Assembly (NCBI GenBank): GCA_963755715.1
Contig: CAVWLW010000001.1
Span: 32,001 to 96,000, forward strand
Length of the DNA stretch: 64,000 nucleotides
Direction of reading: 5' to 3'
Origin: an uncultured delta proteobacterium
GTDB lineage: Bacteria > Desulfobacterota > Binatia > UBA9968
Each line of letters starts with the position of its first letter. Positions within the stretch are counted from its first letter, which is position 1. The notes below the pieces were generated by a model. It was not told the origin of the DNA, made no database searches, and saw only the letters and a program-made list of their open reading frames with translations. Shown one piece after another: positions 13,115 through 52,164 of this stretch. The position numbers and the translations under genes are program-made.

Positions 13115-14988
13115 AATTATTTGGACTGCATAAAAGTTTGACCCGCCAACTGAGGGAGTTTATTCCGGTTGCTGCTTTACTCTGTCTCGCAGCGGGGTGC
13201 GCGACGCCGATCGGCGTAAGCTATGTGGATCGCCGTGTGGCGTATGAATCGCTCACCACGAATGTGCTTTCCACCGAAAGAATGAGTTCCTTCTCCGCGC
13301 GAGAGCTGGTCAATTTTAACCTATACCAGGAATTCGAGGACAATCCGCAAAAGGCGCTTGCCGATCTGCATTCGGCTTTGGCGCCAACAGGCGACGAGGA
13401 GCGCCTGTTCGCCTTGGCCGAGCTTTCTTTTCTTCACGCCGAGAACAGCGGTGAGAGATCCTATTACCTAGCGTCCGCGGTGTACGCTTACGCGTTTTTA
13501 TATCCGGGAAAGCAAGGCACGCCGCCACGGGGAATCGACCCGCGACTGCGTTGGGCGGTGGATCTCTACAACCAGTCGCTCACCCAAGCCGCCAAGTCAG
13601 ACGAAGCCGCCTACGCCATACCGATGGGCGGCAAGTTCAAGCTGCCCTTCGGCGAGCTTACCGTTTCATTCAATGAGCGCGATCTCATATGGGGCGACTT
13701 TCGCATGAAGGATTTTGTTCCCGCAGCCGACATCGAGGTGCGCGGTTTGCGCAATCGCTACCGAACTCCGGGCATCGGTGCGGCGCTCGCCGCGTCGATC
13801 GAGCCGCTCGAGGCGAGCCCAAACAGTCCATGCGTATTCCACCCCGGCTGAAAATTCCGGTCACGGCGTTTTTGCGACTGGAAAATCCACGCGCAGCATT
13901 GGCTTCGGGAAAGCTTGAGCGGCAACCTGGAATTCTACACTCCGGACTCCGCCAGATCGCTCAAGATCGAAGGCGTCGAAGTTCCGATCGAATACGAAAC
14001 AACTTCGGCCCTCGCCCTGACTCTGGAAGGGGCGCCGGTTTGGGATTCCGAGATCGCCGGTTTTCGCTCCGGCGACTTCGCCATCGGCGGCGCGAATTTG
14101 CGCGAAGGACTGTTCATGCTCCACCCGCACAAGACCGGCCGTATCCCGGTCGTGCTCGTGCACGGCACAGCCTCGAGCCCGGCGCGCTGGGCCGAGCTCA
14201 TCAACGAATTGGAGAACGACCCGCAGTTTTGGGAAAATTACGAGATCTGGCTGTTCATGTACAACACCGGCAATCCCGTCGCTTATTCGGCGATGCTCCT
14301 GCGCGACGCTTTGATTAAAGTTGTGAAAGAGTTGGATCCCGACGATAAAGACACGGGGCTCAAGCGGATGGTGGTCGCGGGGCACAGCCAGGGCGGATTG
14401 CTGACCAAGATGACGGTGATCGACAGCGGCATGCACCTCTGGCCTTTCAGTGTGCCGCCGGAAGAGTTGGATCTTGACGTTGAAACACGCGACCTTCTTA
14501 CCCACGCACTGATGATCAAGCCTCTGCCGTTCGTGCGCCGGGTCATTTTTATTGCAACGCCGCATCGCGGCAGTTACCAGGCTCTGGGCATTCTGGGAAG
14601 CTTCGCCTCTTGGATGGTTAACTTGCCGGGCCGTTTTACAAAAATGAGTGTCGACTTCTTGACCCTGCAACGGAAGGGAATTTTTCTCGGTCCAGCGAGT
14701 AGCCGCCTCCCGACCAGCATCGATAACATGAACCCGAACAATCGCTTCATCGTGGGTTTATCCGCGATCCCCATCGCGGATGGAGTCGTCGCCAACTCCA
14801 TCGTTGGCGTTGAAGGCGGTGGCCCGCCGGCAGAGGGCGGAGACGGCGTCGTCAAGTATTCGAGCGCGCACATCGAAGGGGTCGAATCGGAGAAGATCGT
14901 AAATTCGCCACACTCGATGCAGGGTAATCCAGAAACGATCCAGGAAGTGAAGCGCATCCTGCTCAAGCACGCAAACAGTCTGCCTTGA
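13111..14988 (+). CDS. Alpha/beta-hydrolase (lipase/esterase-like) lipoprotein, frameshifted near 13820-13920
   Basis: Lipobox AAGC; PVVLVHGTASSP, GHSQGG nucleophile, ATPHRGS, GDGVVKYSSAH. Confidence 0.85.
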
Positions 14989-19229: not shown

Positions 19230-20588
19230 CTATAGTGCGCGCGCGCCGCCGTGCCACTTATCCATGTGCGCGCGTTCGCTTTCGGAGAGCGCCTCGGCCC
19301 GGTAGAAGCGCTCGTAGAACTCGCTGTCGAGATGGCAGGCTTGAAAGCCGAGCACCGTGCGAAAAGGCGGCATGTACGCGGGAAATCGACCGTAGCGAGC
19401 ATGAATGTATTCGCAGTAAGCAATGGTCGCGTCGACCGCAGCGGAACTGATTTCCGGTAACAGCCTCGGCGATCGCCGCCGGATCGCGCCAGGCGCTGTG
19501 CGCCGCGCCGCCGCGGAACAGGCCTTGCGCGCCAAACTTCGCTTCCACGACGGCGCGCACGGCGTCTTTCATGCTCGGGTAGTACGGCGGACAGTAGGGC
19601 TGGAGCAAAATGTCGCCATCCCGCTCCAAGCCCAAAGCATAACGAATAGCCTGATTGCGACCGAGCAGACGCATCACCTCCCGGGTGAAAATATTCGCGC
19701 CGAGATATTTGCTCGCTGGCATCGCGCCCATGCGAAAACCCAAGGCTTCAAACCAGCTGAACTCATGCTCGGCAAAGTTGGGAAAACCGCCGAGCCCCAT
19801 GGCTTGGCAGATCAAGCCCAAATTTTGCAACATCATGCCTTGCTCTGCGGTGACCAGCTCCGAAACCATCAACTCCAAGCGCTGCACCGTGAGCACGCGG
19901 CCGTCAGAAGGATCGTCATGCAAATGGCCGCCTTTGCTGCGCGCGAAACGGCCGAGGCCGGCGGCGCGGAAGCCGGCGCGCTCATCGACGACAAAAGCGC
20001 CGCTATGTTCGTTAAAAATCTCGAGCAACCCGTTGATGTACATGAAGGTCAATTCATTGATCGGCAAGAAATAGCTCGTCCCGGAGCGTAGAGCGACCAG
20101 CGGTTGACATTGACATTAAACATCGGCGCCACCGGCGGCGCTGCCCGTCCGTCCTTGATTTTCACTCGCAGGCGCTGATAGAGCGCGGTGAAATCTTTTT
20201 TGTTCGCCTGTTCGACCAATCTCGCGATTTCCTGCGCTGGAAAATCTTGCGGCCGCTTGATCAAGTAAGTACCGTCGTCGTTGATGACAACTAACGAAAC
20301 CGTTTGGATCGCGTCGCCGCTGGCGATGGTCCGGCCGAGGGAGCGCGCTACGATCGCGCCGCCCTGGCCTTCGGCAAAGGGTAAATCGAGCAGAGCAAAT
20401 CCCGTAATGCCGCCGGCAGCAAACGTCAAACAGGCCTCTTCTTCTTCGCTTAGCGGAAACGGCGCATGCCGGCTTTGGTACGCCAGCGGTCCGGCCGGCA
20501 TCTTCATGCCCAAGCCAAAGCGCCGCGAGCGACGCTTCGTCAGCGCATCGAGCAGCGAATAATCGCCGAGCGTGTTTGTTGTCGACAT
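19230..20588 (-). CDS. Uncharacterised nitroreductase-like protein (two frameshifts)
   Basis: RRSRRF motif, EQGMMLQNLGLICQAMGLGG; three consecutive frames join up. Confidence 0.55.
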
Positions 20589-20664
20589 AGAAGCGCCTCC
20601 CATGCCCGCTTCTTATCACAGGAAGAAGCCGCGTAAGAGGCGCAAAATCCGGCCTTGAAATAGC

Positions 20665-21139
20665 CTAAGACTTTTCGACGATATCGCTCTTGAGGCTGGC
20701 AAACAGAGTAAGGATCTCGTTTCTCTCTTTATCGGGCACTTTAAATTTGTCCATTGTCGCCGTCAGGTGCTTCACGGTGATTTGCCAGTCCGACTCGGTA
20801 ATTCCCAGGCCCGCATGAACGGTCTTCATGCTTCTGCCGAAATAGTAGCAGGGTCCACCGCTCGCTTCGCAAAGCTGGTCGACCACGTGCTGGCGCAACT
20901 TACGCAGCGAATCCGCGCTGACACCGACAAAAAAACGGCTCATCTGTTTATCCGCGGCCAGCCGGCCAAGAAAATCATCCGTGACCGCCGCGATCGCATC
21001 GTAACCACCGAGGCGCTTGTACAACGACGGCGCGGCGCTGGATGATTGGGCTTGCGCCGGGCGACTCGGGACTGAACGTTCCGCACAACGTGACTGCCAA
21101 AATCACCAAGCCGACTTTTAAAGCTAATTTGCCTCTCAT
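20665..21139 (-). CDS. Group 1 truncated hemoglobin with N-terminal signal peptide (frameshift near 21060)
   Basis: SLYKRLGGYDAIAAV, LCEASGGPCYYFGRSMKTVHAGLGIT; upstream RBS and MRGKLALKVGLVILAVTLCG. Confidence 0.85.
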
Positions 21140-21172
21140 GTTTTTTCCTCCGATCGATAGTTATTCCCAGCC

Positions 21173-22773
21173 TCACAACCGAATGAAACCGCCGCTCACG
21201 AGCGCTTGGCAGGTGAGTCCGACGCCAAAGAGCACGATGAACACGGACGAAGTCAAAGGCAGCCAGCGGGTCACGATTCGCCCTTCGCCGTGAAACCGCG
21301 CCATGAATTGGCGCGCATAAACCATCAAAACACCGATGGCGATCAGCACGGCCGCCAAGCCCATGCTAAAGGCAACGATCAGCAGCAAGCCGAAGCCGAT
21401 CCGCTGCATCGATACCGCGCTCAAGAGCACGACCAGAGCCGCGGGGCACGGCACGATGCCGCCGCTGATGCCGAGGGTCATGAGCTCGCGCAATGATACT
21501 TGGCCCTCGTGATGATCGTGCTGGTGCCCATGGCCGTGATGGTGCGCGTGATGATGTGGGTGGCCCAGCCCATGATGCGAATGACCGTGATGAACATGAC
21601 CCGAGAGCGCGTCTTTCCCAGATAACGCCGCACCAAAAGAATCACGCCGAGCACCAAGATCATGACCCCGGATACCAATCCCAACCAGGGATAAAGCTGC
21701 TCCGGCACGATGTACTGCGAAGCATAGAGAGTGACCGCGCCGAGCAGATACACGCCCGCGGTGTGCGCCGCGGTGACGATCAAGCCGAGCAGCAACGCAT
21801 GCTTGAACGTGCCGCGCGAGCCGACGAGATACGCCGCGACCAAAGTCTTGCCATGTCCGGGCTCAAGGGCGTGAAACGCGCCGAGGCCGACGGCAACGCC
21901 AAGCGCCAGCAGAACGATTCCCAAGCCGAGCTGCTTGGTTGCCATAATATCCGTGAACGAATTGCGCGGCGTCGTTTGCCTGTTGGCTGCGAGTTGGACG
22001 GAAGAATCGTCGCTTGACCTTGCAGAATTCAAGTTTGTGTCTACCCTGTAGGTTTGCTCCGGCGGTAGAATTTCGTTCGACGGCTCTAACGTCTGACGAG
22101 TTGTTTTGGCGACCGAGATCGGACTGCGCACGGGAAGAACCGCTGGCGGAACGGTGCCGACGGTAAAATTGATGCGCGCTTCCAACTGCTGCGGCGGGCT
22201 GTTTAGGAGATCGGTCGGGTAATCGCTTAATTGTCGGCTGCGATCCGTGCCGGGAACCGAACTATTAATCAACTTCAAGCCGGCATCTGCTACCGCGATA
22301 ATTTCTTTCCAGCCGGCTCGTCCGGGAAAATTGCCATCGCGATAATCCAATGACCGTTCTTCGCCCATCGATGCTTCTTCGAGCTTTGCTCTAAAAAGCA
22401 TGCCGATTTTCATCGTCGGCAAACCACCCGCGCCCGGCGGAAAAATGATCTCCCTCGAATCAAGTTGAAGCCATAGTGGCTTGCCGCCGACCTGCAGCGA
22501 CAAACCATCGCGCAGAATCTCCGCCTTGCGTGTGAGATAGGCTTGTAAGTTGACGTCGTCGAGATCGACGGTGATCCTGTTTTCTTGCATTTCCTGGAAA
22601 GTCGGAATTTCGGCCATATCGATGATGTATCTGAGCTCGACCGCGTCTTTGCCGATACGAATCGCCGAATAATGGCTGATGCTGAAATTTCCCAGAGGAT
22701 GAGCCGTCGCTCGGTCGGCGCCGAAAATCGTCAAAACGGCGAACCAGATAACGGCGATCCGGCGCATGTCCAT
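21173..22773 (-). CDS. RcnA/NicO-type Ni/Co transporter fused to an exported N-terminal domain (frameshift near 21610)
   Basis: HPLGNFSISHY; HALEPGHGKT; AHTAGV; His-rich loop GHVHHGHSHH..HQHDHH; GGIVPCPAALVVLL. Confidence 0.9.
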
Positions 22774-22777
22774 CGCT

Positions 22778-24088
22778 TTATCCTCCTTGGCCTTGCCTCT
22801 CGACGCCGGCTCGGTCAGTGCTGTGCTCCGAGCGCTCGAGGATTTCTGCGGCAGTTGCGCTAAAGACGGGATGAAAATTGCGATTGGTGCTGAGCGCGAG
22901 AGAAAGAAATTCGGTAGCTTTCGCCTTCGCGTCCAAAGACGAGTAAATCATGCCCGCGTGGAAAAACAGCTTGGCGTCTTTCGTGCCTAACTTGAGCGCT
23001 TCTTCGATAGCGGCGCGCGCTTCGTCGAGTCTGCCGTTCTTGTAAAGATTCCAGGCCAAAAGATCGTAGGCATAAATATCGCGGCGGTAATCCAACTCGC
23101 GCTGCGCCAGCTCCAGCCCGACATTTAATTTCAGGTCGTGATCGGCGTAAAAGTAAGCGAGCTCCCGGTTGTAAAGAACCTTGTTGATCTCGTTCAGCCG
23201 GCCGATGTATTCGACCAGCGCATACTGTTGACGCGCTTGCTCGTCTCGCCCCGTCTTCGCGTAGATGTCGCCCAGCGCCGCGGCATAGTCGGGCATCGGC
23301 AGTATGGCGATGGCCTTTTGATAGAAATCGATCGCTTCATCGTAGCTCTTTTGCGCGGTGCGTAACTGCGCCATGCCGGCTAGAGCCCGATAGTAATTCG
23401 GATACGTTTGCAGCGATTGTCGATAACAACTCTCCGCCTTCAGTAAGTCACCGATGGCGAAATGCTCCATGCCGAGCTGCCACTCCGCCCAGGCGATGCC
23501 CTCGCTCGGCTGTTTTGCTGCTTTCCCAAGGGCGACAGCACGTTCTAAATCCGCAATCGCGCCCGCGCTATCGCCGCGCGTGCTCTTCAGCCCTGCCAAC
23601 CGGCTATACGAGTAGAGACTTTGTTCCAGCTGCACCATGTGATCGTACGCCGCCTCGGCTTCGGCGTACCGACCGACTTCGAGCAGCGCGTCGCCGAGAA
23701 TGCCGTAGGCGTCGCCGTCCTCGGAATTGATCTCCAAGGCTCGGCGTGCCTGAACCGCGGCGGGCGCAAATTCGTGGCGCGAATAAAAAACATAAGCGAG
23801 ATGGCGTAAAGCGCCGGCGTTTTGCGGCGCGATCGCCAAAGCCTTTTGCAATGCTTCCTCGGCGCGGTTGAAATAGCTCGGGTCGCCGGATTCTCTGGCT
23901 TTACGGATCAAAGCGTCGCCGAGCCCGAGTAAGACAGTCGTATTGCGCGGATTGCGCTTGAGCATTTGCTGGTAGTAGCCGATCTGATAATCGGTGCGAG
24001 CTTGCTGCGCCAGTGAAAGCTCCACCGCGACGCTGAAAATACTTAACGCGGTGAGAATCGTCACGATCATGCTTTGTTGGAATTTCAT
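22778..24088 (-). CDS. Exported tetratricopeptide-repeat protein
   Basis: Signal peptide and many TPR units; ARESGDPSY, RRDIYAYDLLAW. Confidence 0.88.
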   Translation of the reverse strand: MKFQQSMIVTILTALSIFSVAVELSLAQQARTDYQIGYYQQMLKRNPRNTTVLLGLGDALIRKARESGDPSYFNRAEEALQKALAIAPQNAGALRHLAYVFYSRHEFAPAAVQARRALEINSEDGDAYGILGDALLEVGRYAEAEAAYDHMVQLEQSLYSYSRLAGLKSTRGDSAGAIADLERAVALGKAAKQPSEGIAWAEWQLGMEHFAIGDLLKAESCYRQSLQTYPNYYRALAGMAQLRTAQKSYDEAIDFYQKAIAILPMPDYAAALGDIYAKTGRDEQARQQYALVEYIGRLNEINKVLYNRELAYFYADHDLKLNVGLELAQRELDYRRDIYAYDLLAWNLYKNGRLDEARAAIEEALKLGTKDAKLFFHAGMIYSSLDAKAKATEFLSLALSTNRNFHPVFSATAAEILERSEHSTDRAGVERQGQGG

Positions 24089-24152
24089 GTCCGGTCTCCT
24101 TCGCACGCAGTCGCCGGAGGAGGACGCTCATCCTCCTCCGGCGAACAGCCGG

Positions 24153-25695
24153 TCAATTACAGGGATTGGCGCCCGCTTCACCGCAGTCGATGTGCCGGCG
24201 ATTCCGGCCGTCGTATGGCGTTGGCAAATAGGGAAACACTTTGTAGATTCCGTTGGGCGTCAGATTCGATCCTTGCGCGCCCTGGAGAAAATTGACCCCG
24301 TCACCGACGCGCGCGGCGATATAGTTCGCGCCGCCCACGACTCGAATTGCGATGTCGGTTACGTCGTCGTTGGGACGGCGGCCGTTCGGAAAACCCGCCG
24401 CATCGCCCGCGAGTCCACCGAGCCGCTTTTGATTTTCCGGCTGAGTCGGCGCGACTTTCAAGTTCACGCGCAACAGCTCGGAACAGGGATTGCCGCAGTC
24501 ATTGCCGTTCAGAGCTTGACCCGGATATTTGAGCAGCAGGCCCATGAGATCGGTACGCGGCGTCTGGCGTGACCGGAACGTTGAAGATGAGCGCCAGCGC
24601 CTGGGCGATCGATGGATTTTTGTAGAATTCTTGAAACCGCGCTTCGTCCTCGGGCTCTTGTGAATTCCAAAAGTCCTTCGACGGCGTATCGATGATCAAT
24701 TCGTTAACCAACGGATTGGCCAAGCGCGAGACTTGCGTCCACGGGCCCGCGAGCACTGACGTTCCATCGCCCGCTAGGTGTTTGGTTTTTTGCCTGGCGG
24801 TCGACGCATACATGCCAATCAATGGAGTGTTCGTTTGCTCGGCCGGTTTGCCGTCCCGCGTAATTCTTGCGATCGGCACCTCGATGACGATGCTGTTCAC
24901 GTTGGTACCGCTGAACCGGTTAACACCGAATGGATTCACCGAGTCATTGGCGTCTTCTGCCTCCGTCAGCAGCGGCAGAAAGCGACGCAGATTTACCGTG
25001 TCGAACACCGCGCCGAGATCGATGTAAAAAGTTTCCGCCCGCTGACCGGCGAAAACCTTGATGCCGGTCGATGCATCGGCGTAAATCCCCTGGGCGGCGA
25101 GATCCTCATAATTCGGCATCGTCGCCGGTCCGGCGTTGGACGGCACAGCGATCAGCCTTTGGCCCTTGAACAGCTCGGTCCGCTTGTGGCCTCTGACTTC
25201 GGTGACCGTATAGGTCTGACGACGGCTGAGGCCTTCCGATCCCGCGCCGTCGAGCTTGATGATCCCTTGGACCTCGGGAACCGGAATATGAGGATTACCG
25301 ACATAGGGCAGCGGAAAAAGCAGTGAGCCTAGGATGGGGCGGGTTTCGGTCTTGAATCTGAACTCGTAGACGATATCTTCCGCCTTGCCGTCTTGGTTGT
25401 TGTCGATATTGAAGCTGTAGAGCACTTCGTCATCGAAGTTAAAATAGTTCGGCCCGTCGGCGGGATCCTGGCCGGGGATGACGTTCATAACGAACACCGC
25501 TTTGCTCGGATCTTGCCAACTGCGAAACGCGTAAGTGTCGGTGTTATCTGCCGCCGGATCGAGCGCGATCAGCGGCGCTTCTCGATGGCTGGCCGCGCGC
25601 GCGAGCGGCGCTGTCGTCGCCGTGATCATAAGCGCAGCCAGAGACACTGCCGTAAACTGATAAAAGACATGGCTCGACAAATTTTTCATGGTCAT
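24153..25695 (-). CDS. DUF4331 family exported protein (frameshift near 24560)
   Basis: ASHREAPLI..DPAADNTDTYAF, QVSRLANPLVNE, GFPNGRRPNDDVTDI, FPYL. Confidence 0.9.
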
Positions 25696-25791
25696 TTTCC
25701 TTTCTTGATTTTGATGGGAACGTCGCTTTCAGCTCAAACCCAACCAGGTCATTGTTGCTCTGGCCGGGTTTTTGAGTTTGCAATTATTCGG

Positions 25792-26442
25792 TTATCGGTT
25801 CGCAAAACGCTCGGGAAATTGTTTCACGATGGCGGCGGCCAGAGGGTCGGCGATCATTCCCATGTGGCCGGCTGCGCTGCGAATCGCCATGAAAGTTTTG
25901 TTCATATCGCCCGTCGCCTGCGCGTCGATGACATCTTTCAACGTCAGGACATGATCTTTCACCAGATTGGCGACCACGTCCTTGGGCAAATTAGGATTTG
26001 CCGAGGCGAGGAAGGCGCCGAAGTCTTGTGTATATTGGACGAGATCGGTGACGGCTTTATTTTTCTTGGCGTCGTCCTTGGTTGCGACGCCGACGGTATA
26101 ATCGACAACGAAGCCGATATGCTTGCGCCATAAGGGAAGAAAGGCCTGCTCGGCGCCAGCGCCATAAACCGCGCCGATAGCTTTGGCAATATCGATGGAG
26201 TTGGCGTCGAGGGCACCGGCGGCGGCTTTGAATTCGCCGTCGCGGCCGGCCAGCGCGGCGCCCGTAGCCGCGGCCGCCAGGAAAACATGCTCGCGAAACA
26301 ATGAATTGAGACCCGTTCTTAAATCCGAGCTCATCGCGCCATGGTGGCTCATCTCGGCCGCGACTGCGCTCGCCGTGTGGCCGGCGCCGAGTAACGCGAC
26401 CATCACGGCCGCGCCGACAAAGTTTTTGCATGCGATCTTCAT
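25792..26442 (-). CDS. Exported alpha-helical His-containing protein of unknown function
   Basis: Signal peptide; DLRTGLNSLFREH, IGAVYG..AFLPLWRKHIGFVVDY, LVKDHV, AGHM, AIVKQFP. Confidence 0.7.
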   Translation of the reverse strand: MKIACKNFVGAAVMVALLGAGHTASAVAAEMSHHGAMSSDLRTGLNSLFREHVFLAAAATGAALAGRDGEFKAAAGALDANSIDIAKAIGAVYGAGAEQAFLPLWRKHIGFVVDYTVGVATKDDAKKNKAVTDLVQYTQDFGAFLASANPNLPKDVVANLVKDHVLTLKDVIDAQATGDMNKTFMAIRSAAGHMGMIADPLAAAIVKQFPERFANR

Positions 26443-26496
26443 TTTCAGTTCTCTCCTTTTTTGTTTGTATTGCGTAGGTCAGAATTGCCGACAATT

Positions 26497-26907
26497 TTAT
26501 TGGACGTGGATTTGTCCGCGCATGGATGGGTGGCGGTCGCAGAAATACTCGTAAACACCCGGACGATCGAAGGTGTAACTGGCTGTGGCACCCTTGGCGG
26601 GAAAATTGAGACTTACATTTTCCAGTCTTTCCGGTGTGCCCAAAGTGACGGTGTGCCGGATGTCGTCCTGATTTACCCACGTCACCGTCGTGCCGGCTTT
26701 GATCTCCAATTGGCCCGGCTGATATTGGAAGAGTTGAATCGTTACCGCGGCTGGCGGCTGGGAACGTGGGCCCACGCTTTCGCCGCTCGCCACAACAGCG
26801 CTCTGTTTCTGAGGAATGTCGTCACAGTCCTCATGTGCATGCAGCGGCGAACTCCCGGCCAAGACGCTCGCGGTCAAGACTGCTGCGCTCCGCCAATGCC
26901 CTTTCAT
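26497..26907 (-). CDS. Cupredoxin (plastocyanin/amicyanin-like type-1 copper protein)
   Basis: GTTVTWVNQDDIRHTVT ... YEYFCDRHPSMRG gives His/Cys/His/Met ligands; signal peptide. Confidence 0.9.
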   Translation of the reverse strand: MKGHWRSAAVLTASVLAGSSPLHAHEDCDDIPQKQSAVVASGESVGPRSQPPAAVTIQLFQYQPGQLEIKAGTTVTWVNQDDIRHTVTLGTPERLENVSLNFPAKGATASYTFDRPGVYEYFCDRHPSMRGQIHVQ

Positions 26908-26966
26908 CGCGTCTCCTCCTTGTCTGTCGTTGTCAGCTAAACCGACTTTGGCTTTCTGTGTCGGTC

Positions 26967-26992
26967 TACGAACGAGCAGCAAGCTTTGGATT
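26967..26992 (-). promoter_or_regulatory. Putative ECF sigma promoter for the cupredoxin-DUF4331 operon
   Basis: AATCCAAA-N14-CGTA on the minus strand; same boxes and spacing as the divergent copy. Confidence 0.7.
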
Positions 26993-27040
26993 GCTCAAAT
27001 CTTCGATTTCTTTTGCCGCAAAAAATTCTTTGCAGCGCTA

Positions 27041-27066
27041 AATCCAAACCGGTGGGTTCGAACGTA
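27041..27066 (+). promoter_or_regulatory. Putative autoregulatory ECF sigma promoter
   Basis: AATCCAAA-ccggtgggttcgaa-CGTA upstream of the anti-sigma/sigma operon. Confidence 0.7.
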
Positions 27067-27141
27067 AAGAGTATTAGGTGTTGTTTGCGCCGCGAAATTG
27101 ACTCGGGCTAGAATGGCTCGGTTCAATCGAGCAGGTGACTT

Positions 27142-27700
27142 ATGGATCACGAAAATTGGTTGGAATTGGCAGATGTCTACGCTGCGGAGGCCTTGGACGG
27201 GGAAGACCTGAGCGAGTTCAACGCGCACCTGGCCGCGGGCTGCCCGCTCTGCCAAGCGCGTATTCGCGAGACTCACGAAGCCCTGGCTGGTATTTCAGTT
27301 TCCTTGGAACCCATCTCTCCCGCTCCTGCGCTCAAAGAAAAAATCTTAGAACGAATCGATGCAGAACAGCCGGGCCTGGTGTTCATTCGCGCCAATGAAG
27401 GTTCGTGGATCGAGGCCGAGCCGGGCATCTTCGCAAAGATCTTGAACATGGACGCCGAGCGCGGGCGTGATCACCGCGCTGGTGCGTCTGGCGCCGGGCT
27501 CGCGCTACGCCGCTCATCGGCACCTTGGTACTGAAGAAGTTTTGGTCTTAGAGGGAAGTTGCTATTGCGGCGGCCGCCTGCTGCGCAAAGGCGACTATCA
27601 TCGCGCCGAGGTCGGCAGCGTTCATGTCGATATGCGCAGCGACGAAGGTTCGCTGATGTTGATTAGCGCGCCACTGCAAAGCGACATGCTTCCCACGTGA
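27142..27700 (+). CDS. ChrR-like anti-sigma factor (zinc-binding ZAS plus cupin domain), frameshift near 27465
   Basis: HLAAGCPLC; cupin HRHLGTEEVLVLEG..GDYHRA..SVH. Confidence 0.85.
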
Positions 27701-27746
27701 TTCCAGGGATGGAGTAAACGTTGATGCTGCTCAAGACGACAGATCG

Positions 27747-28313
27747 GTGATGCCTGTGGAGCCGTTGGTCGATCCTGTGAGTTTAATCCAGCGAATCGCG
27801 GCGCAAAATCGCGACGCCTTCAGCCAGTTCTACGATCGCTACTCTCCGATAGTTTATTCCCTGGCGCTGCGCATGCTGAGAGCGCAATCCGATGCCGAAG
27901 ATTTGCTCCAAGAAATTTTTCTTCAAGTGTGGCGCCAAGCCACGGTCTATAGCGCCGAGCGCGGCAGCCCGGAAGCCTGGCTGATCAACATCGCGCGCAG
28001 CCGCGCCATCGATAAGCTCCGTTCCATACGTAGAAGAGAAAGGAGTTTTGTCTTGACCGACGATCCGGCCGCGGCGGAGTCGCCGGATAACGTAGAGACC
28101 TCAGCCGGAGAATCGGAATCTAAGTTGGTCATGAATAGCGCTTTGGCGAATTTGCCGGAAGCCCAGCGGCGCGTGCTCGAGCTCGCTTACTTTGATGGCT
28201 TGAGCCAAAGCGAGATCGCCGCGCGCCTCGCGGAACCGCTCGGCACCGTGAAAACGCGAATGCGCTCGGGTATTCAGCGCCTGAGAGGAATGCTTGGAAC
28301 ACAGGCCGCATGA
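27747..28313 (+). CDS. ECF RNA polymerase sigma factor (SigK-like)
   Basis: DAEDLLQEIFLQVW, RGSPEAWLINIARSRAID, LAYFDGLSQSEIA..PLGTVKTRMR. Confidence 0.93.
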   Translation: MMPVEPLVDPVSLIQRIAAQNRDAFSQFYDRYSPIVYSLALRMLRAQSDAEDLLQEIFLQVWRQATVYSAERGSPEAWLINIARSRAIDKLRSIRRRERSFVLTDDPAAAESPDNVETSAGESESKLVMNSALANLPEAQRRVLELAYFDGLSQSEIAARLAEPLGTVKTRMRSGIQRLRGMLGTQAA

Positions 28314-29041
28314 TGTCTACGGAGCACGCACATTGGCTGGAGCGCGGCGACATCTATGCTCTCGGTGCGCTGGACGGTGAGGAGCTGAAAGACTTCCAAG
28401 CGCATCTCGCGATGGACTGCGCGATGTGCGCTGCGTACCTCCGTGAAACCCGCGAGACTTTGAATCTGCTGCACCGCTCCCTTCGTCCGATCACGCCGCG
28501 ACCCGAGCTCAAAGCGCGACTTCTTGAGAAGGTCCGCAGTGAAAAAGTTGTTCCCATCGCGGCACTGCAGCCAAAAGCGTCGCAGTGCTGGCAGCGAATC
28601 ACGGGAATGATCGCCGCTGGAATTATTGCTGTCGTTCTGGTCGGCGCGTTTTACCAATATCGCAATCGCGCGGTGATCAATACCGCGGTCGTCAATTTAT
28701 TGCGCGATCCGTCGACCCGCGATCTGCCGCTCTACGGTGCCGGGGCCAATGCCGCAAGCCAAGGGCGATTTCTCTGGAACGATTCCGGCGAGGGTCATAT
28801 CTTCGTCGCCAATTTACCGTCGGCGCCGCGAGGAAAAACCTACGCGGTGTGGACGATTGCGCGCAACTCCGCCCCGCGCTACGTCGGCGCACTCAACACC
28901 GACGCGAACGGACAAGGCGGTGTGCACATCAAATCAACTGCCAGCGCAGCGCCCATTGAAACCTTTGCCGTCACATTGGAAAACGCAGGCACGACCACCG
29001 CTCCTGCCGGGCCGATGGTGCTGGTATCAAAACAATCCTAA
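28310..29041 (+). CDS. RskA-like transmembrane anti-sigma factor
   Basis: YALGALD..HLAMDCAMC, one TM helix, LPSAPRGKTYAVW, FAVTLE..G..PAGP. Confidence 0.88.
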   Translation: MMSTEHAHWLERGDIYALGALDGEELKDFQAHLAMDCAMCAAYLRETRETLNLLHRSLRPITPRPELKARLLEKVRSEKVVPIAALQPKASQCWQRITGMIAAGIIAVVLVGAFYQYRNRAVINTAVVNLLRDPSTRDLPLYGAGANAASQGRFLWNDSGEGHIFVANLPSAPRGKTYAVWTIARNSAPRYVGALNTDANGQGGVHIKSTASAAPIETFAVTLENAGTTTAPAGPMVLVSKQS

Positions 29042-29048: not shown

Positions 29049-29099
29049 AGGGCGACCGCCGGTCACCCCTACACGGGCGCAGCATGCTGCGCCCCTACA
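29049..29099 (-). repeat. Tandem GTAG-type REP palindromes
   Basis: Minus strand reads GTAGGGGCGCAGCATGCTGCGCCC and GTAGGGGTGACCGGCGGTCGCCC. Confidence 0.75.
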
Positions 29100-31635: not shown

Positions 31636-32643
31636 ATGGGCACAACGTTAGGCGCTCGCGTCACGATGGTCTTCTCGTTCGTTGTGGCGGCTATTTTTTT
31701 TCCCGTCCGAGCATCAAGCCAAGAGCGGCTCAAAGTGATCTACAGCCAATTCACCATGACAAACTCGGCGACCTGGTTCGCCCGCGAGGCCGGTCTCTTC
31801 GAGCGCCATGGCCTGATGGCCGATTTAGTTTATGTCGATTCTACCCCGGCCGTGCAAGCGCTCACTGCTGGAGCGGCGCCGGTCGCCACGATGTCCGGCG
31901 GCCTGGCCGTCGGTCCCTATTTGAACGGCTTGGACTTGGTGATGCTCGCCGGCTGGTGCAATTTAAATTCATACCAGCTCATCACGCGTCCCGAGATTCG
32001 CCGGGTCGAAGACCTGCGCGGCAAAGTCATCGGCATTGGCCGCTTCGGCGCCGCCGCCGATTGGGGGCTGCGCTTGATCCTCAGGAAGCTCGGCATCAAT
32101 GAGAATAAGGATGTGCAAATTATCCAGGCCGGCGGCGGCGGTCCATCCACACGCCTCGCCGCGATGGAGGCCAAGAAGCTCGACGCCACCGTGCTCGATT
32201 CGCCGCAGACCGTGCAGGCTCGCCGTTTAGGTTTTCGCGCTTTAGCCGACGGCGTCGAATTGGGTATTCCGTTCTTGCAGGGCGGTTTAGTGACGCGGCG
32301 CGCTTACATTCAAGCTCATGAGGATACGATCCGGCGGCTCGTCCGCGTCATCGTCGAAGCGATTCATTACGCCAAGACCAATCGGGAAGCGGCGCTCAAG
32401 ATCATGCAAAAGTACCTGCGCGTGCAGGATCGCGAAGCTCTCGAAGACGCCTACGAATCTTTCGTGCTCAAACAGTTTCCGCGCGCTCCGTACGCGGTGC
32501 CCGCCGCCGTCCAGATTATCTTCGATCTAGCCGGCGCGCGCGACCCGCGCGCAAAAACCGCCGACCCGCAGGGATTCATCGATATGCGTTTCGTGCGTGA
32601 GATCGAGCAGAGCGGCGCGATCGACCAGCTGTACGGACGTTGA
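31636..32643 (+). CDS. NMT1/THI5-like ABC substrate-binding protein
   Basis: AREAGLFERHGL, DLRGKVIGIGRFG, signal peptide. Confidence 0.88.
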   Translation: MGTTLGARVTMVFSFVVAAIFFPVRASSQERLKVIYSQFTMTNSATWFAREAGLFERHGLMADLVYVDSTPAVQALTAGAAPVATMSGGLAVGPYLNGLDLVMLAGWCNLNSYQLITRPEIRRVEDLRGKVIGIGRFGAAADWGLRLILRKLGINENKDVQIIQAGGGGPSTRLAAMEAKKLDATVLDSPQTVQARRLGFRALADGVELGIPFLQGGLVTRRAYIQAHEDTIRRLVRVIVEAIHYAKTNREAALKIMQKYLRVQDREALEDAYESFVLKQFPRAPYAVPAAVQIIFDLAGARDPRAKTADPQGFIDMRFVREIEQSGAIDQLYGR

Positions 32644-32690
32644 GGACCGCCGTAAAATCCACCTGCTTTTGCGAAATGCTTATGCGAAAA

Positions 32691-33069
32691 TTAGAGTGGC
32701 ACAACATCGACGGTCGCGATTGTCGATCCACGCTCGATGAGCCGTACATCGGTTGGCTGAGCGCTGGGCGGCGGCAACGTCGCCATTTCGTAAAAAATTC
32801 TGGCGCCAGCGGCGTTTCCGGTGCCTTGACGCTCGACGAACTCGGCCACATCTTCGAGATTTTGGCAAAAAATGAACTGCTCACCTCTGGCGAGGACGGG
32901 CACGGTGCGCACGCCGAGTTTAAACAGCTGCGCGCGCCCGGCAGTATCGTTCAGACATCGACGCCGCTGAAGGCGATGCTCCTTTTTTCGAAAGAAACTC
33001 TTTCGTTCCGAGGCAACTGCTTCAACCCGGTTGAGTGAACAAAACAAATTGATCGGCGCCAATTTCCAT
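32691..33069 (-). pseudogene. Selenocysteine (UxxC) glutaredoxin-like gene, multiply frameshifted and 3'-degenerate
   Basis: AGGAG RBS and ATG at 33069: MEIGADQFVLFTQPG-TGA-SSCLGTKEFLSKKG, then in shifted frames IAFSGVDV, LGVRTVPVL, QNLEDVAEFV. Confidence 0.7.
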
Positions 33070-33266
33070 ATCGATTCCGCTCCTGTCGAACACCTACCAA
33101 TGACTTCCGTAGCTTGCAAGTCCAATCCTCATGGGAAATTTTGCGCCGGCATGAATGCTTTTCGCACTGGATAATAAATTTGACCTCCAATGCCGGTCTC
33201 CGATAGGATTTCCTGTCAAAGCAGCGTCGGCAACAATTGTCTAGGCGATCACGAAGGAGTTGCGAG

Positions 33267-34217
33267 ATGAAGCGCACAGGATCAGTGAGCGTTATTCTGT
33301 TGGCGATCAGTCTGTTATTACCTGGAATCACACCCGCAGCCGAGAGCCTCCAGAAAATCCGCGTCGGCCTGCCATCGCTCGCGTTGACCTACATGCCCTA
33401 TTACGTTGCCCAAGAGAAAGGCTTGCTTAGAAAGTCGGGGCTCGAAGCCGAATACATACAGATGAATTCGGGGATCCAGCCGCAAGCGGTCATTGGCGGC
33501 AACATCAATTTTTTTCCATCTTTGTCGACAGGGATCTCAGCCGCGGTTTCCGGCTTGCCATTGGTGGTGGTGCTCAATTTCTACAATATGACGCCGTGGA
33601 TGCTGGTAACCACCAAAGAAGTCAACAAACCGCAGGATCTGATCGGCAAAAAGCTCGCCGTCTCGGGCATCCGAACCTCGCCGCATCAATTCTTGATGGC
33701 GTGGTTCAAAAAGATCGAGTTCAACGAGAAAGACGTCGGCTTTATTATGACCGGCGGCACCGCCTCGAGCTTCGCGTCGCTCGCCAGCGGCCAAGTCGCC
33801 GGCGCCGTGCTAACACCACCCTTCGATGACAAGGCGGTAAGCCTCGGCTTTAAGAAATTCGCGCTTGTCGGCGACCTCGTCGATATTCCGACTTCGGGAT
33901 TGATCGCTTCCCGGGCGGAAGTCACCAACCAGCGCGATCGGGTTCAAAAAACCGTTGCAGCGCTCCTCGAAGCCGTAGCTTGGATACGCGCCAACCGCGC
34001 CGAGTCCGTAAAGATGATCGCGGAGAAGTTTAAGATCACGCCGGCCGAAGCCGAACGCACTCACGAAACCTTCGTCGGCACGTTCAATAAAGACGGCCGC
34101 TTGCCGCTGAAAGTGGCCCGCGGCTATTTGGACTTGCTGCGCCAGGAAAGACCCGTGCCGGCGGATGTCGACCCGCAAAAGTTCCTAGACTTTTCCCTGC
34201 TGCCGGGAGCGAAGTAA
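33267..34217 (+). CDS. NMT1/THI5-like ABC substrate-binding protein
   Basis: PYYVAQEKGL, DLIGKKLAVS, signal peptide. Confidence 0.88.
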   Translation: MKRTGSVSVILLAISLLLPGITPAAESLQKIRVGLPSLALTYMPYYVAQEKGLLRKSGLEAEYIQMNSGIQPQAVIGGNINFFPSLSTGISAAVSGLPLVVVLNFYNMTPWMLVTTKEVNKPQDLIGKKLAVSGIRTSPHQFLMAWFKKIEFNEKDVGFIMTGGTASSFASLASGQVAGAVLTPPFDDKAVSLGFKKFALVGDLVDIPTSGLIASRAEVTNQRDRVQKTVAALLEAVAWIRANRAESVKMIAEKFKITPAEAERTHETFVGTFNKDGRLPLKVARGYLDLLRQERPVPADVDPQKFLDFSLLPGAK

Positions 34218-34287
34218 GCAGGTCGACGGGATTCGCAATCCATCGCCTAGAGGCCAACACCATGCGTTCCCGCGCCATAAAGGTTAT

Positions 34288-35232
34288 ATGAAAAATTTCC
34301 TGCCGGCTTTATTCTTGTTGCTATCCGTTTGCCAACTCGCCCGCGCGGCGGAAGTTCAAGTGGTCACCGTCGCTTTGGTGTCGCCGAGCTGGAATACCGG
34401 CTTACCCACTGCGGTTGCGCGGGGCGCCGGCTTTTTTAAGGAAGAAGGTTTGGATGTCAGACCCGTAACGCTGTCCAGCAGCGGCCCGATCATGATGGCG
34501 CTGCTCATGAGCGGTCACGCGGACTTAGTCATAGCCGGCGCGGTAGCGATCTTGCGCGGCATCTCGCAAAACGCTCCTGTGGTGGTGGTCAGCGGTCATC
34601 TGAATCGAATGAGCTACGCGCTCATGAGCGCCAAGGACTTGAAGACGGTGGCGGATTTGCGCGGCAAGACCATCGGCATTACCGGCATCGGCGGCATGGG
34701 AGAATTTACCGTGGTCGAGTCGTTGCGCCGCAGCGGCTTGGTCAAAGATCGGGATTTTACCGTACTGAATATTGAAGGCGGGCCGGCAGCGCGAATTGCC
34801 GCGCTAAAAACCGGCAAAGTGCAGGCAGTGCCGCTGACACCGGGACAACGCGTGCAGATTGAAAACGAAGGATATCCCGTGCTCTTGGATACCCGCGAGT
34901 CGCTCCCGGAGATTCCTTCGACGATCATCGCGTCGACAAAGGAATTCACCAGCTCCAGCCCGGATAAGATCACGCGTTTTTTACGCGCGCTGTCGAGAGC
35001 GATGGAGCTGATCCGCCGGGACAAAGACAAGGCGATCGCGCTCGGCAAGAGCCAGGGATTGCGCGGCGATCTTGCGCTGGAACGCAAAGCGCTGGACTAT
35101 TACGCCGACGACCTCGACATCCGTCTTAAGAAGGAAAACATCGCCGCGCTTTTGAAACCGATCGGGATTTCGGAAGCGCCGCAAAAATATTTCGATGAAA
35201 GCTTCTTGACGCGGGCCACCGGGCTTCGTTAA
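34288..35232 (+). CDS. NMT1/THI5-like ABC substrate-binding protein
   Basis: GFFKEEGLDV, DLRGKTIGITGIG, signal peptide. Confidence 0.88.
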   Translation: MKNFLPALFLLLSVCQLARAAEVQVVTVALVSPSWNTGLPTAVARGAGFFKEEGLDVRPVTLSSSGPIMMALLMSGHADLVIAGAVAILRGISQNAPVVVVSGHLNRMSYALMSAKDLKTVADLRGKTIGITGIGGMGEFTVVESLRRSGLVKDRDFTVLNIEGGPAARIAALKTGKVQAVPLTPGQRVQIENEGYPVLLDTRESLPEIPSTIIASTKEFTSSSPDKITRFLRALSRAMELIRRDKDKAIALGKSQGLRGDLALERKALDYYADDLDIRLKKENIAALLKPIGISEAPQKYFDESFLTRATGLR

Positions 35233-35250
35233 GAAAGAATCAACATTGTC

Positions 35251-35887
35251 ATGACTCGGAGGTTTCCAATGGACTCAGAACGGACAATCGAACTCGCCGC
35301 GGAGCGCACCGGTCTGATCATCGTCGATATGCAGGCTGAAGGCTGCGCAAGGCACGGACCGGGACTCAAACCGGTGATCAAAAATATTCGCTCTTTATTG
35401 GACCGTTTTCGCGAGGCCGGTGGCAAGATCATCCATATTCAATCGGTCAGGGCGAAAGATCATCCCGAGTTCACTTTCTTTGGCAAGCCCTACTCTCTTC
35501 TCGACAACAGCCCCGCCGTGGAGTTTGTCGACGAATTGAAACCTGATCCGAGCGAGGTCGTCGTCAAAAAATACTCCCATGACTGTTTCTATCAAACGAC
35601 CCTGGAAGATCGCCTCAAAGAGCTCGATCTTCGCCCTTGCAGAGACCACGTGGTCGTCACGGGAATCGGCTCGAACAATTGTGTTTACCACGCGGTTATC
35701 GGCTTTCACATTCGCAACTACATCATCCACGTCCCGGAAGATTGCATCCATGCGAGCCAAGCCGAGGGCCAGCAGTTTGCGCTGAGCCAGTTCCGCTCAC
35801 CCGCATACAATTACAACGTGGGTGTTACCACGATCGGAAAACATCAAGCTTTCGGCAGTCATGGATCGAGCGGCGGTCAATCTTTAA
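35251..35887 (+). CDS. Isochorismatase-family cysteine hydrolase (probable frameshift near 35833; the uncorrected ORF runs to 36003)
   Basis: IIVDMQ, KKYSHDCF and SNNCV supply the D-K-C triad. Confidence 0.85.
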
Positions 35888-36051
35888 GATCGGCTTCGAA
35901 TCGCATCGTTAGCTCGTTCTTGCGCTGGATTAAACCAAGCATACGCTCCAGACTGCGCTGGGCGTTTCCAATGGCCAAGCAAAATCGAGATCCTTTCCCC
36001 TGAAATCAGTATCCTCGCAACGATCGTCCGGCTTTGCTACGATGCCGCTCG

Positions 36052-36849
36052 ATGAAAGCCATCCGTAAAGCGTTGACGATCGCCGGTTCCGACTCCGGCG
36101 CCGGCGCGGGCATTCAAGCCGATCTGAAAACTTTTGCCGCCCTCGGCGTCTACGGCACTTCGGCGCTTACCGCGATCACCGCGCAGAACACGATCGGCGT
36201 AACCCAAGTCTTGGCGTTACATCCGGATCTCGTCGCGGCTGAGATCGACGCGGTCATTTCAGACATCGGCGCGCATGCGCTTAAGACCGGCATGCTGGCC
36301 AATACGGCGATCATTCAAATGGTCGCCAAGAAAATTCAACAGCATCGCTTGAAAAATCTCGTCGTCGATCCGGTGATGGTGGCGACTTCCGGCGACCTGC
36401 TGATCAAAAAAAATGCCGTCACGGCGCTTCGCTCGATTCTAATTCCGCTCGCCGCCGTGGTAACGCCCAATATCCCGGAAGCGGAAGAGCTCACGGGTTT
36501 AAAGCTGCGCACGCCCCAAGACATCGAAGAGGCGGCGCGGCGCATCGTCGAGATGGGCGCTAAGACGGTCGTGATCAAAGGCGGTCATCGCCGCGGACCG
36601 GCGGTGGATTTATTTTTTGACGGGAAAAAATTTCGCTCGCTGCACGCGGCCCGCGTTCGCACCAAGAATACGCACGGCACCGGCTGCACTTTTTCGGCGG
36701 CGATCGCCGCCTACCTCGCTAAAGGCGAAACATCGGCAAGAGCCGTTTCATTGGCCAAGCAGTACATCACCCGCGCCATTCGCGCCGGCTTTGTCGTCGG
36801 CGCCGGTCATAGCCCGGTGCATCATTTTTATCGGTTTTGGAGAAACTAA
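36052..36849 (+). CDS. thiD: Hydroxymethylpyrimidine/phosphomethylpyrimidine kinase
   Basis: LTIAGSDSGAGAGIQADLKTF, VVDPVM, NTHGTGCTFS. Confidence 0.96.
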   Translation: MKAIRKALTIAGSDSGAGAGIQADLKTFAALGVYGTSALTAITAQNTIGVTQVLALHPDLVAAEIDAVISDIGAHALKTGMLANTAIIQMVAKKIQQHRLKNLVVDPVMVATSGDLLIKKNAVTALRSILIPLAAVVTPNIPEAEELTGLKLRTPQDIEEAARRIVEMGAKTVVIKGGHRRGPAVDLFFDGKKFRSLHAARVRTKNTHGTGCTFSAAIAAYLAKGETSARAVSLAKQYITRAIRAGFVVGAGHSPVHHFYRFWRN

Positions 36850-47701: not shown

Positions 47702-47785
47702 GAATTGCTCGCCTGTCAGGATTGCTGCAGGATTTTAAAGTGCGAATGTATTGAACCGATTGAACGGTTTGAACTCTTTTATCTT

Positions 47786-51163: not shown

Positions 51164-51187
51164 ACAACGCCGAATCGTTTCGTCGCA

Positions 51188-52145: not shown

Positions 52146-52164
52146 CCGCCTACATTTTGTTCAC

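Follow-up and report, generated by a model that had tools for sequence, protein, structure and literature searches.

A DUF4331–TPR–permease gene module of a binatian bacterium as a candidate envelope copper/nickel-handling system under SigK-like sigma factor control

We analysed positions 20665–29041 of a 64-kb window, that is, of the whole stretch of DNA under study, which belongs to the binatian contig CAVWLW010000001.1 (GCA_963755715.1). The segment carries nine genes, namely six genes of the same orientation on the minus strand, including one for a secreted protein of the DUF4331 family (PF14224), and three divergent genes on the plus strand for an extracytoplasmic function (ECF) sigma factor and two putative anti-sigma factors. 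The gaps between the minus-strand genes are 4 to 96 nucleotides (nt) long and the divergent intergenic region comprises 159 bp. A sequence-only reading of this DNA had listed the same genes at the same coordinates, and open reading frames (ORFs) and Pfam searches agreed with it on both, as well as on the families; it had passed over frame breaks in four of the gene models (DUF4331, NicO, globin and ChrR-like), which are described below. Signal peptides and cleavage sites were called by eye from a hydrophobic core followed by a small-x-small site.

In the order of transcription, the minus-strand genes encode an exported type-1 copper protein of the amicyanin-like cupredoxin kind (26497–26907; Copper-bind, PF00127, 47.4 bits on the ORF 26497–26982, cut-off 21.2), an exported helical protein of 216 amino acids (aa) without a Pfam family (25792–26442), the DUF4331 protein (24153–25695), a TPR protein that has a signal or anchor segment at its N-terminus (22778–24106; TPR_2 86.2 and TPR_1 79.2 bits), a NicO permease fusion (21173–22773) and an exported truncated haemoglobin (20665–21139; Bac_globin, PF01152, 61.2 bits on 20665–21024, cut-off 21). 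The plus-strand genes encode a ChrR-like soluble anti-sigma candidate that combines an anti-sigma N-domain with a ChrR-type cupin (27142–27700; a weak RskA_N match on 27142–27534), an ECF sigma factor of the SigK-like kind from the ECF18/19 neighbourhood (27747–28313; Sigma70_r2 70.7 and Sigma70_r4 53.9 bits) and an RskA-like membrane-spanning anti-sigma factor (28310–29041; RskA_C 58.2 bits, cut-off 29.4). A terminator-like GC-rich hairpin with a T run, its 8-pair stem holding 7 GC pairs, follows on the same strand at 29075–29094, as judged by a consensus scan only.

Four of the genes are interrupted by frame breaks of a single base; when the DNA was aligned with that of relatives, an indel of one base was seen at every break. 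Near 24565, the DUF4331 gene has one extra base, a G that is additional to the DNA of the related loci L022 and L023 in the alignment, and the three-frame translation places the C-terminal quarter of the protein in a second frame. The NicO gene lacks one base near 21614–21616, so that its His-rich loop and last helices are read in a second frame. One extra base near 21061/21062 splits the signal peptide of the globin from the globin frame. The export signal claimed for this protein is indeed present at ATG 21139, but its frame is not that of the globin ORF, and the two are contiguous only in the relative L020. In the ChrR-like gene, one extra base near 27468 shifts the cupin half into a second frame, which ends at 27700.

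The window was compared, at a likeness of at least 90%, with Logan contigs from three soil-metagenome DNA runs belonging to three studies; their actual identity was 95–99%. Between these contigs and the window, there was a difference of exactly one base at each of the four break sites, namely 21061/21062, 21614/21616, 24565 and 27468. At the NicO site, contigs from four runs have one base more at 21614 or 21616, and at the ChrR-like site contigs from three runs are without one base at 27468 or 27470. All four genes are intact in relatives of the same genus (DUF4331 524–535 aa, NicO fusion 606 aa, globin 157 aa, ChrR-like protein 204 aa), and nine same-genus DUF4331 places span profile positions 2–421 (one of them 2–419) free of stops. 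Meanwhile, other genes of the window are also split over overlapping ORFs of the same strand: gyrA (45241–47734, minus strand), a SulP permease gene (411–2097, plus strand) and, twice, the gene of a TonB-dependent receptor (53377–55484, plus strand). It should be noted that gyrA is single-copy in the genome, yet broken in the window. The source is a draft assembly of 76 contigs with a completeness of 93.6%. As the DNA-run contigs are free of each indel and the single-copy gyrA is broken as well, we conclude that the four frame breaks are consensus errors of the draft assembly and not gene decay. The window thus illustrates how indel errors of a draft assembly mimic gene decay; in the source assembly, such errors occur at about one per several kb, and pseudogene calls made there need a check against reads.

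The match to the DUF4331 profile is divided between the ORFs 24499–25695 (288.6 bits, profile positions 2–308) and 24153–24545 (70.5 bits, 335–421), each above the cut-off of 27, and the intact orthologue of locus L023 reached 385.6 bits over positions 2–421. The mature window protein is predicted to begin with Ala-Ser-His-Arg-Glu-Ala-Pro. Among 54 diverse members of the family, 49 have a [small]-x-[A/G] cleavage site (by eye) followed by two residues X-[S/N] and then H-R-E-A-P; four of the remaining five likewise show Ser-His when inspected by eye, and three representatives without a signal peptide start with M-[S/T]-S-H. A free N-terminus with His at position 3 makes up the ATCUN pattern, which binds Cu(II) and Ni(II). 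With this criterion (free N-terminus, His3, Pro excluded from position 2), mature DUF4331 is predicted to carry an X-Ser-His tip of the copper/nickel type. The structural model of the protein (pLDDT 87, pTM 0.86) has a beta-sandwich core and a helical part, and a profile search gave no PDB sequence match. A complex prediction for DUF4331 residues 46–524 with TPR residues 30–436, made with both proteins given as alignments, scored 0.07 against a mark of 0.32, which weighs neither way.

The family is very large, with more than 7,800 proteins at E ≤ 1e-5 among 8,000 candidates examined and 5,097 cluster representatives at E ≤ 0.001. A full-text literature search, outside which subscription-only papers lay, found no paper discussing it; in the literature searched, DUF4331 appeared only as a list item in two supplements (the supplement of PMC7826278 and the source data of PMC12537917). 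Genome G000 holds a second, divergent DUF4331 paralogue on its contig C58 (1051–2055, plus strand; E 9.5e-21 to the profile built here), and no NicO, HupE or helical match was found elsewhere in that genome.

The permease fusion consists of a signal peptide, a beta-sandwich domain predicted to open with His1, a linker and a membrane domain of the NicO/RcnA type with a His-rich loop. Because the gene is split between the ORFs 21478–22773 and 21173–21493, its two NicO fragments (26.3 and 25.9 bits) fall below the cut-off of 27.7 (PF03824), whereas the intact 606-aa orthologue of locus L020 exceeds it with 57.3 bits. The His-rich run G-H-V-H-H-G-H-S-H-H stands before the last helices in the second frame, and likewise in L020. 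The window protein reads A-T-A | H-P-L-G-N-F, which gives a predicted mature end with His at position 1 (cleavage by eye). The same pattern, A|H-P-[L/M]-G-N-F, is found in 29 of the 32 NicO fusions listed, the other three being fragments; in alignment A2, where the rows were picked by the His1 motif, the invariant H1 is there by construction. Pfam identifies a second permease type in related loci, the HupE_UreJ_2 (PF13795) fusions, with 144–169 bits and a predicted mature end A|H-K-[P/A]-S-D-S-Y. No match to such a HupE fusion was obtained in the genome of the window, whose membrane domain is of the NicO type.

The N-domain of the NicO fusion was modelled with a pLDDT of 84.9. Its top Foldseek match was 9gce, the copper-bound RbAng-1a (E 1.2e-4, probability 1.00), and VIA-align superposed the two with Z 8.8 over 147 of 168 residues (root-mean-square deviation 5.6). 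Behind it in VIA-align came two zinc proteins of the periplasm, ZrgA (Z 7.5) and PA4063 (Z 6.6), so that the structural matches of the model point consistently, though modestly, to periplasmic metal-binding sandwiches. In the profile search of PDB sequences, the same domain had no match, 9gce included, and the profile of the HupE-fusion N-domain found no relevant PDB sequence.

DUF4331 genes are present in 10 of 24 other genomes of the same genus (9 of 23 without the unpublished genome G005). In all eight same-genus loci, the ECF genes lie opposite DUF4331, TPR and NicO genes as far as the contigs reach. A distant set of 80 loci, with one genome per species, was then searched at the ORF level with profiles built in this analysis. 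It includes loci of Acidobacteriota, Actinomycetota, Chloroflexota, Nitrospirota, Pseudomonadota (among them Nitrosomonas, Methylomonas, Competibacteraceae and Variovorax), Verrucomicrobiota and others; locus L087, of the cultivable Variovorax flavidus, has the module in its HupE-type form. The TPR gene directly follows DUF4331 in 56 of the 71 loci with at least 1.5 kb downstream. Where at least 4.5 kb of downstream sequence was available, a permease fusion occurred downstream in 33 of 62 loci (21 of the NicO and 12 of the HupE/UreJ-2 type) and on either side in 38 of 62. Both flanks were available for 40 loci; 15 of these have a gene for an ECF sigma factor no farther than 6.5 kb away, and in 13 of the 40 it is accompanied by an anti-sigma gene. 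The conserved core is therefore made up of DUF4331, the TPR protein and the metal permease.

On a FastTree tree of the 80 DUF4331 proteins, the permease type switches at least four times, which means that two unrelated families of metal permeases repeatedly filled the same slot. Among the indirect arguments that the module handles a metal, this one is the strongest. The loci of the genus fall into three separate DUF4331 clades, which suggests repeated horizontal acquisition. HupE-type loci from a Nitrosomonas and a gammaproteobacterium form the sister group of the window-type clade, with a support of 100. One same-genus genome, G017, carries two DUF4331 modules, one with a globin and without a cupredoxin (L021, on contig C168) and the other with the cupredoxin and the helical protein (L022, on contig C477).

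A promoter motif shared by the divergent operons was found between them. The motif AATCCR-N15–17-CGTAR has only two matches in the window against 0.37 expected, and both lie in the divergent region, where two copies of AATCCA-N16-CGTA[A/G] are directed one toward each operon. The copy at 26966–26992 on the minus strand (-35 AATCCA, 16-nt spacer, -10 CGTAG) faces the six genes for exported proteins, and that at 27041–27067 on the plus strand faces the chrR-like/ECF sigma/rskA-like operon, which is probably autoregulated through it. Both copies are kept in eight of eight same-genus loci, on the side of the first operon gene and on the ECF side. Of the 74 distant loci that were eligible, 19 have a slightly looser form of the motif between -250 and +150 relative to the start of DUF4331, some of them without a nearby sigma gene; the background rate is 0.0038 per 400 nt. 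The window has no second motif copy ahead of DUF4331, and the cupredoxin and helical genes thus stand between the promoter and the core genes. According to the published descriptions, ECF18 promoters have CGTA at -10 and ECF19 promoters have ATC at -35 (PMC7826278), with which the window motif fits; in the supplement of the same paper, DUF4331 is entered among the conserved neighbours of the subgroups ECF18s13 and ECF214s1, and the ECF18 member RpoP is described there as acting in nickel/cobalt resistance. The view of the sequence-only reading that the locus encodes an extracytoplasmic system which is uncharacterised and goes with a pair of ECF sigma and anti-sigma factors is supported.

The sigma factor of the window has 188 aa and no cysteine, and therefore the published disulphide switch in sigma-4 cannot apply to it. 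Its L023 orthologue, which is 86% identical, stays under the cut-offs of its two best NCBIfam models, namely PRK12519 (178.4 bits, cut-off 222) and SigK PRK09646 (159.4 bits, cut-off 226), and reaches 105.3 bits with the generic ECF model TIGR02937 (cut-off 42.9). The RskA-like gene overlaps the sigma gene by 4 nt, and its product scored 110.7 bits with NCBIfam NF052375 (cut-off 100). The intact 204-aa ChrR-like orthologue of L023 matches Cupin_7 with 72.8 bits (cut-off 27), and with TIGR02451, the ChrR family model, it scored 24.4 bits against a cut-off of 124.5.

Short contigs of the rhizosphere metatranscriptome X15, with a depth of 2.5–4.4, give partial cover of the genes for NicO, TPR, DUF4331, the helical protein and the ChrR-like protein, and one of them begins inside the promoter; uncovered stretches carry no information. 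As DNA carry-over is possible, we do not count them as proof of expression. Within the operon, the 96-nt gap between the helical and DUF4331 genes contains an imperfect inverted repeat at 25740–25790 (minus strand) with arms of about 11 nt and without a T run; it could be an element of RNA processing or attenuation. The contigs of two other runs have a 4-base insertion at 25747, inside the same gap.

The remaining three genes of the minus-strand operon are of a different standing. For the cupredoxin, a start at TTG 26982 had been proposed. Since the promoter occupies 26966–26992, the most likely start is ATG 26907, which is preceded by a ribosome-binding site and gives a protein of 136 aa. Among PDB sequences, this protein was matched best by a copper nitrite reductase, in the cupredoxin domain at the C-terminus of that enzyme (E 2.9e-14), and by amicyanins (E 7e-11). 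Its segments R-H-T-V and F-C-D-R-H-P-S-M align with the nitrite-reductase cupredoxin domain at the His, Cys, His and Met positions, which we take to be the type-1 copper ligands. The helical protein has a Met/His-rich stretch, M-S-H-H-G-A-M, just past the predicted signal peptide. It had no match in Pfam, NCBIfam and PDB sequences, and the protein atlas gave unnamed clusters only; its relatives showed faint DUF6478 matches, one just over the cut-off and the rest under it. Metagenomes contain 1760 relatives of it, single or in tandem, and a sample of 301 genomes of the phylum had it in 4 cases. The globin belongs to the group I truncated haemoglobins, and the nearest solved structure to its L020 orthologue is Mycobacterium tuberculosis HbN (E 4.9e-16). 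The His of M-K-T-V-H in the L020 protein aligns with that of M-K-Q-V-H in HbN and is presumably the proximal His.

Besides the window, the cupredoxin and the helical protein are found together in four of the eight same-genus loci and the ChrR-like gene in five, while an intact globin is encoded in L020 alone, L021 giving only a 38-residue match. Beyond the genus, only L095 among the 80 loci matched the helical protein, and only L072 matched the cupredoxin, weakly so. The globin was sought there with a single sequence, since the iterated globin profile drifted onto HupE fusions and was dropped. These results indicate that the cupredoxin, the helical protein and the globin are lineage-specific additions outside the conserved module. 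A co-occurrence of DUF4331 with TPR, NicO/HupE, cupredoxin, truncated haemoglobin and ECF/RskA genes across genomes had been put forward as a check of the sequence-only reading; it held for DUF4331, TPR and NicO/HupE genes, but the redox and helical proteins could not be upheld as general features. In this lineage, the three additions suggest a link of the module to copper and O2/NO chemistry.

The slot next to the promoter is variable among relatives. In L019 of the same-genus genome G004, a cytochrome P460 gene (11173–11688, minus strand; PF16694, 91 bits) lies between an ECF-type promoter and DUF4331, so that different small redox proteins are swapped into the position held in the window by the cupredoxin and the helical protein. 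In L017, an exported protein without a known family occupies the slot, and in further relatives it is empty. Two distant loci of Competibacteraceae, L096 (14030–14203, plus strand) and L052 (about 14110–14290, plus strand), encode only the C-terminal half of a truncated haemoglobin, about 58 residues, at the end of the HupE-fusion gene or just after it (phmmer about 1e-8; Pfam silent). This half-globin may be what is left of a globin that was formerly joined to the module in some distant lineage.

Taken together, the gene families, the predicted termini and the recurring neighbourhood point to an intact and widespread envelope system for handling a metal of the Cu/Ni type under SigK-like ECF control, a reading to which we give about an even chance. 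In such a system, a SigK/RskA-type ECF sigma factor, together with the soluble ChrR-like anti-sigma candidate, would use the two divergent AATCC-N16-CGTA promoters, one driving the operon of the sigma factor itself and the other the six-gene operon of exported proteins. The secreted DUF4331, with its predicted X-Ser-His tip of the ATCUN pattern, and the TPR protein as its periplasmic core partner would work with an RcnA/NicO-type permease whose His-rich loop is predicted to face the cytoplasm and whose periplasmic His1 N-domain resembles the copper-binding anglerase Ang-1. Upon release of the sigma factor, a Cu- or Ni/Co-type ion would move between the periplasmic carriers and the permease. 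The cupredoxin, the Met/His-rich helical protein and the truncated haemoglobin share the transcription unit and would probably be clients or redox partners. The module would thus be a metal system of the envelope that is under ECF control and has a permease resembling the anglerases, with DUF4331 and the TPR protein as two additional conserved partners.

A bolder version of this proposal appears rather unlikely to us, albeit worth stating. According to it, DUF4331 founds a new class of secreted metalloproteins with a Cu/Ni-type tip and forms, with the TPR protein and the His1 permease, a three-part Cu/Ni relay outside the cytoplasm that is switched on by SigK-type factors across many phyla; in this lineage, the relay would be wired to periplasmic redox and gas proteins (cupredoxin, helical protein, haemoglobin N and, in a relative, P460), supplying or protecting a periplasmic copper/haem chain for O2/NO. 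Should the main reading hold, the very large DUF4331 family would gain a testable function, the anglerase idea would extend to a second permease family and to a relay of several proteins, and SigK-like sigma factors would gain a widespread target outside mycobacteria. Soil-dominating bacteria (Acidobacteriota, Actinomycetota, Binatia and nitrifiers) would likewise gain an unrecognised way of handling metals of the Cu/Ni type.

Several observations weigh against the main, metal-handling reading. As for DUF4331, its model had no Foldseek match at E ≤ 0.001 and hence no informative structural relative; its best VIA-align match was a starch-binding protein, that is, a generic beta-sandwich, with a Z of 7.6, which is within the noise band of the tool. 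The protein has only one near-invariant His, and its many conserved Asp and Asn residues would fit calcium as well as a transition metal. As for the permease, the best NCBIfam model, the efflux transporter PRK10019, gave 135.5 bits against a cut-off of 195, the match of the N-domain to 9gce is modest (Foldseek TM 0.31/0.45), and the N-domains of NicO and HupE fusions share no profile similarity (hhalign probability 0.8%). No permease was found in 24 of the 62 loci with enough flank (about 40%), and in 13 permease-less DUF4331–TPR loci the genes after TPR had no common family. Stress responses are placed under an ECF sigma factor more typically than the uptake of metals is, and the transport could run in either direction. 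Finally, a loose promoter expression had 45 matches genome-wide, about the number that our own rough estimate gives for chance, and is too loose for defining a regulon; a regulon beyond the two divergent sites is therefore not claimed.

The same data were considered with regard to other explanations. DUF4331 could be a catalytic metalloenzyme that the TPR protein and the permease mature and supply with metal, and to which the cupredoxin and the globin feed electrons or O2/NO, in line with the sequence-only reading, which had DUF4331 as the metalloprotein core. This would agree with DUF4331 being the most conserved member, rich in invariant polar residues, and with the recruitment of redox proteins at the same positions of the genus operon (the cupredoxin in the window and half of the eight loci, P460 in L019, haemoglobin in L020 and the window). 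However, the redox proteins are missing from nearly all of the 80 distant loci and thus are not obligate partners, the PDB sequence, Foldseek and VIA-align searches showed neither a fold nor a motif of an enzyme kind in DUF4331, and the Ang-type domains are described as having no substantial oxidase or peroxidase activity (PMC12537917); we regard a catalytic role as improbable. A similarly low probability attaches to a regulon of redox or nitrosative envelope stress, in which the SigK/RskA pair and the ChrR-like protein would sense oxidants, HbN would serve as an NO dioxygenase and the cupredoxin would carry electrons, with only a supporting part left for the permease and DUF4331. SigK–RskA responds to the redox state, with its signal still unknown (PMC7509140; PMC7826278), the locus encodes a cupin of the ChrR type, the closest globin with a solved structure is HbN of M. 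tuberculosis, and cytochrome P460 sits in the same slot of a relative. Meanwhile, the cysteine-free sigma factor makes the published switch inapplicable, and what recurs from phylum to phylum is the set of DUF4331, TPR and permease and not that of the haem and copper proteins.

The recurrence of the permeases bears also on a third explanation, in which the DUF4331 sandwich would serve as a surface structure or adhesin akin to MPT70/MPT83, which are fasciclin antigens in the SigK regulon, with the TPR protein as an assembly factor and the permease as an incidental neighbour. Indeed, the DUF4331 model resembles only Ig-like or carbohydrate-binding beta-sandwiches (Z ≤ 7.6), and the supplement of PMC7826278 shows that ECF18/ECF19 contexts often hold surface proteins, for example, those with fasciclin domains. 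As two unrelated metal-permease families were repeatedly recruited beside DUF4331–TPR, and as the predicted His3 of DUF4331 and His1 of the permease are conserved, we consider such a structural role quite improbable, more so than the two preceding explanations. The view that the frameshifts are real and that the organism is losing a decaying operon is hardly credible. Four of the nine genes are broken in the assembly, and the presence of DUF4331 in fewer than half of the other same-genus genomes marks it as dispensable; against this, contigs of 95–99% identity from three DNA runs of three studies are without each indel, and breaks of the same type affect the essential, single-copy gyrA and other genes of the window.

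Other features of the window were recorded along with the module. Directly after the globin gene, at 19258–20603 on the minus strand, two overlapping ORFs of 184 and 269 aa lie in different frames and have no Pfam or NCBIfam match; they may be a single frame-broken gene, and the pair is kept beside the module in L016 and L017, on differing sides. About 25 kb from the DUF4331 module, a second cobalt-related locus was found, a cluster for cobalamin salvage and its lower ligand at 50488–63999 (plus strand). Behind genes for TonB and a TonB-dependent receptor, it encodes CobS, a CobQ-type amidotransferase, CbiZ, CobD, an aminotransferase, CobU, CobT, CobS, a periplasmic binding protein and an FecCD permease. 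At 31636–36846 (plus strand), three tandem paralogues of the NMT1/THI5-like periplasmic-binding type are followed by an isochorismatase-family gene and by ThiD, a phosphomethylpyrimidine kinase; this unusual array is related to the thiamine pyrimidine.

Among the published concepts, the anglerases are nearest to the permease of the module. In these proteins, the His1 domains, Ang-1 as well as Ang-2, are fused to HupE/UreJ-2; Ang-1 binds copper with a dissociation constant (Kd) of 74 nM and nickel with a Kd of 220 nM, the copper values of Ang-1/Ang-2 being about 60–75 nM (PMC12537917). The window fusion is alike in its predicted signal peptide followed by a His1 that opens a periplasmic beta-sandwich tethered to a metal permease, in having 9gce as the top structural match of its N-domain, and in that 12 of the 62 related loci carry a HupE/UreJ-2 fusion after DUF4331–TPR. 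It differs in that its membrane part is of the NicO/RcnA type with a His-rich loop, instead of HupE/UreJ-2, and that its N-domain has no sequence match to 9gce or to the N-domains of the HupE fusions. The main text of the anglerase paper has no mention of DUF4331, TPR, NicO or a sigma factor, and in its source data DUF4331 figures among the neighbours no more than 1–2 times (PMC12537917).

The regulatory half of the locus resembles SigK–RskA of M. tuberculosis (ECF18/19), where an ECF sigma factor is likewise followed by a single-pass anti-sigma factor of the RskA_C type and where the promoter is of the ATC(-35)/CGTA(-10) kind with probable autoregulation (PMC7509140; PMC7826278). The sigma-4 cysteine pair is not defining for all SigK/ECF19 subgroups, as stated in PMC7826278. 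Unlike SigK, the sigma factor of the window is cysteine-free and stays below the NCBIfam SigK cut-off, its gene is preceded by that of a soluble ChrR-like protein, and its predicted targets are DUF4331, TPR and the permease, not MPT70/MPT83.

The nickel/cobalt efflux system RcnA–RcnB of Escherichia coli also joins a NicO/RcnA permease with a His-rich loop to a periplasmic accessory protein. In E. coli, RcnA lacks a His1 domain in the periplasm, RcnB and DUF4331 are unrelated proteins, and the regulator is the RcnR repressor, not an ECF sigma factor; the window permease differs from RcnA in its score as well, with 135.5 bits in the RcnA-type NCBIfam model against the cut-off of 195. RpoE–ChrR of Rhodobacter sphaeroides (ECF11) has a role in the response to singlet oxygen. 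It is matched here by a soluble protein that combines an anti-sigma N-domain with a ChrR-type cupin (Cupin_7, 72.8 bits for the L023 orthologue). In contrast to ChrR, the Cys motif of this protein is H-x4-C-x2-C by our own count instead of H-x3-C-x2-C, its score with TIGR02451 (24.4 against 124.5 bits) is low, and it adjoins an RskA-type anti-sigma factor and thus is not the sole one.

Finally, the globin recalls the cable bacteria, in which periplasmic truncated-haemoglobin domains form fusions with pentahaem cytochromes and have been suggested to serve as a periplasmic oxidase (PMC11976967). In both cases, a truncated haemoglobin is placed outside the cytoplasm behind a signal peptide (PMC11976967). 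Unlike the fused domains of the cable bacteria, the window haemoglobin is a separate small protein whose gene closes the operon of the putative metal module.

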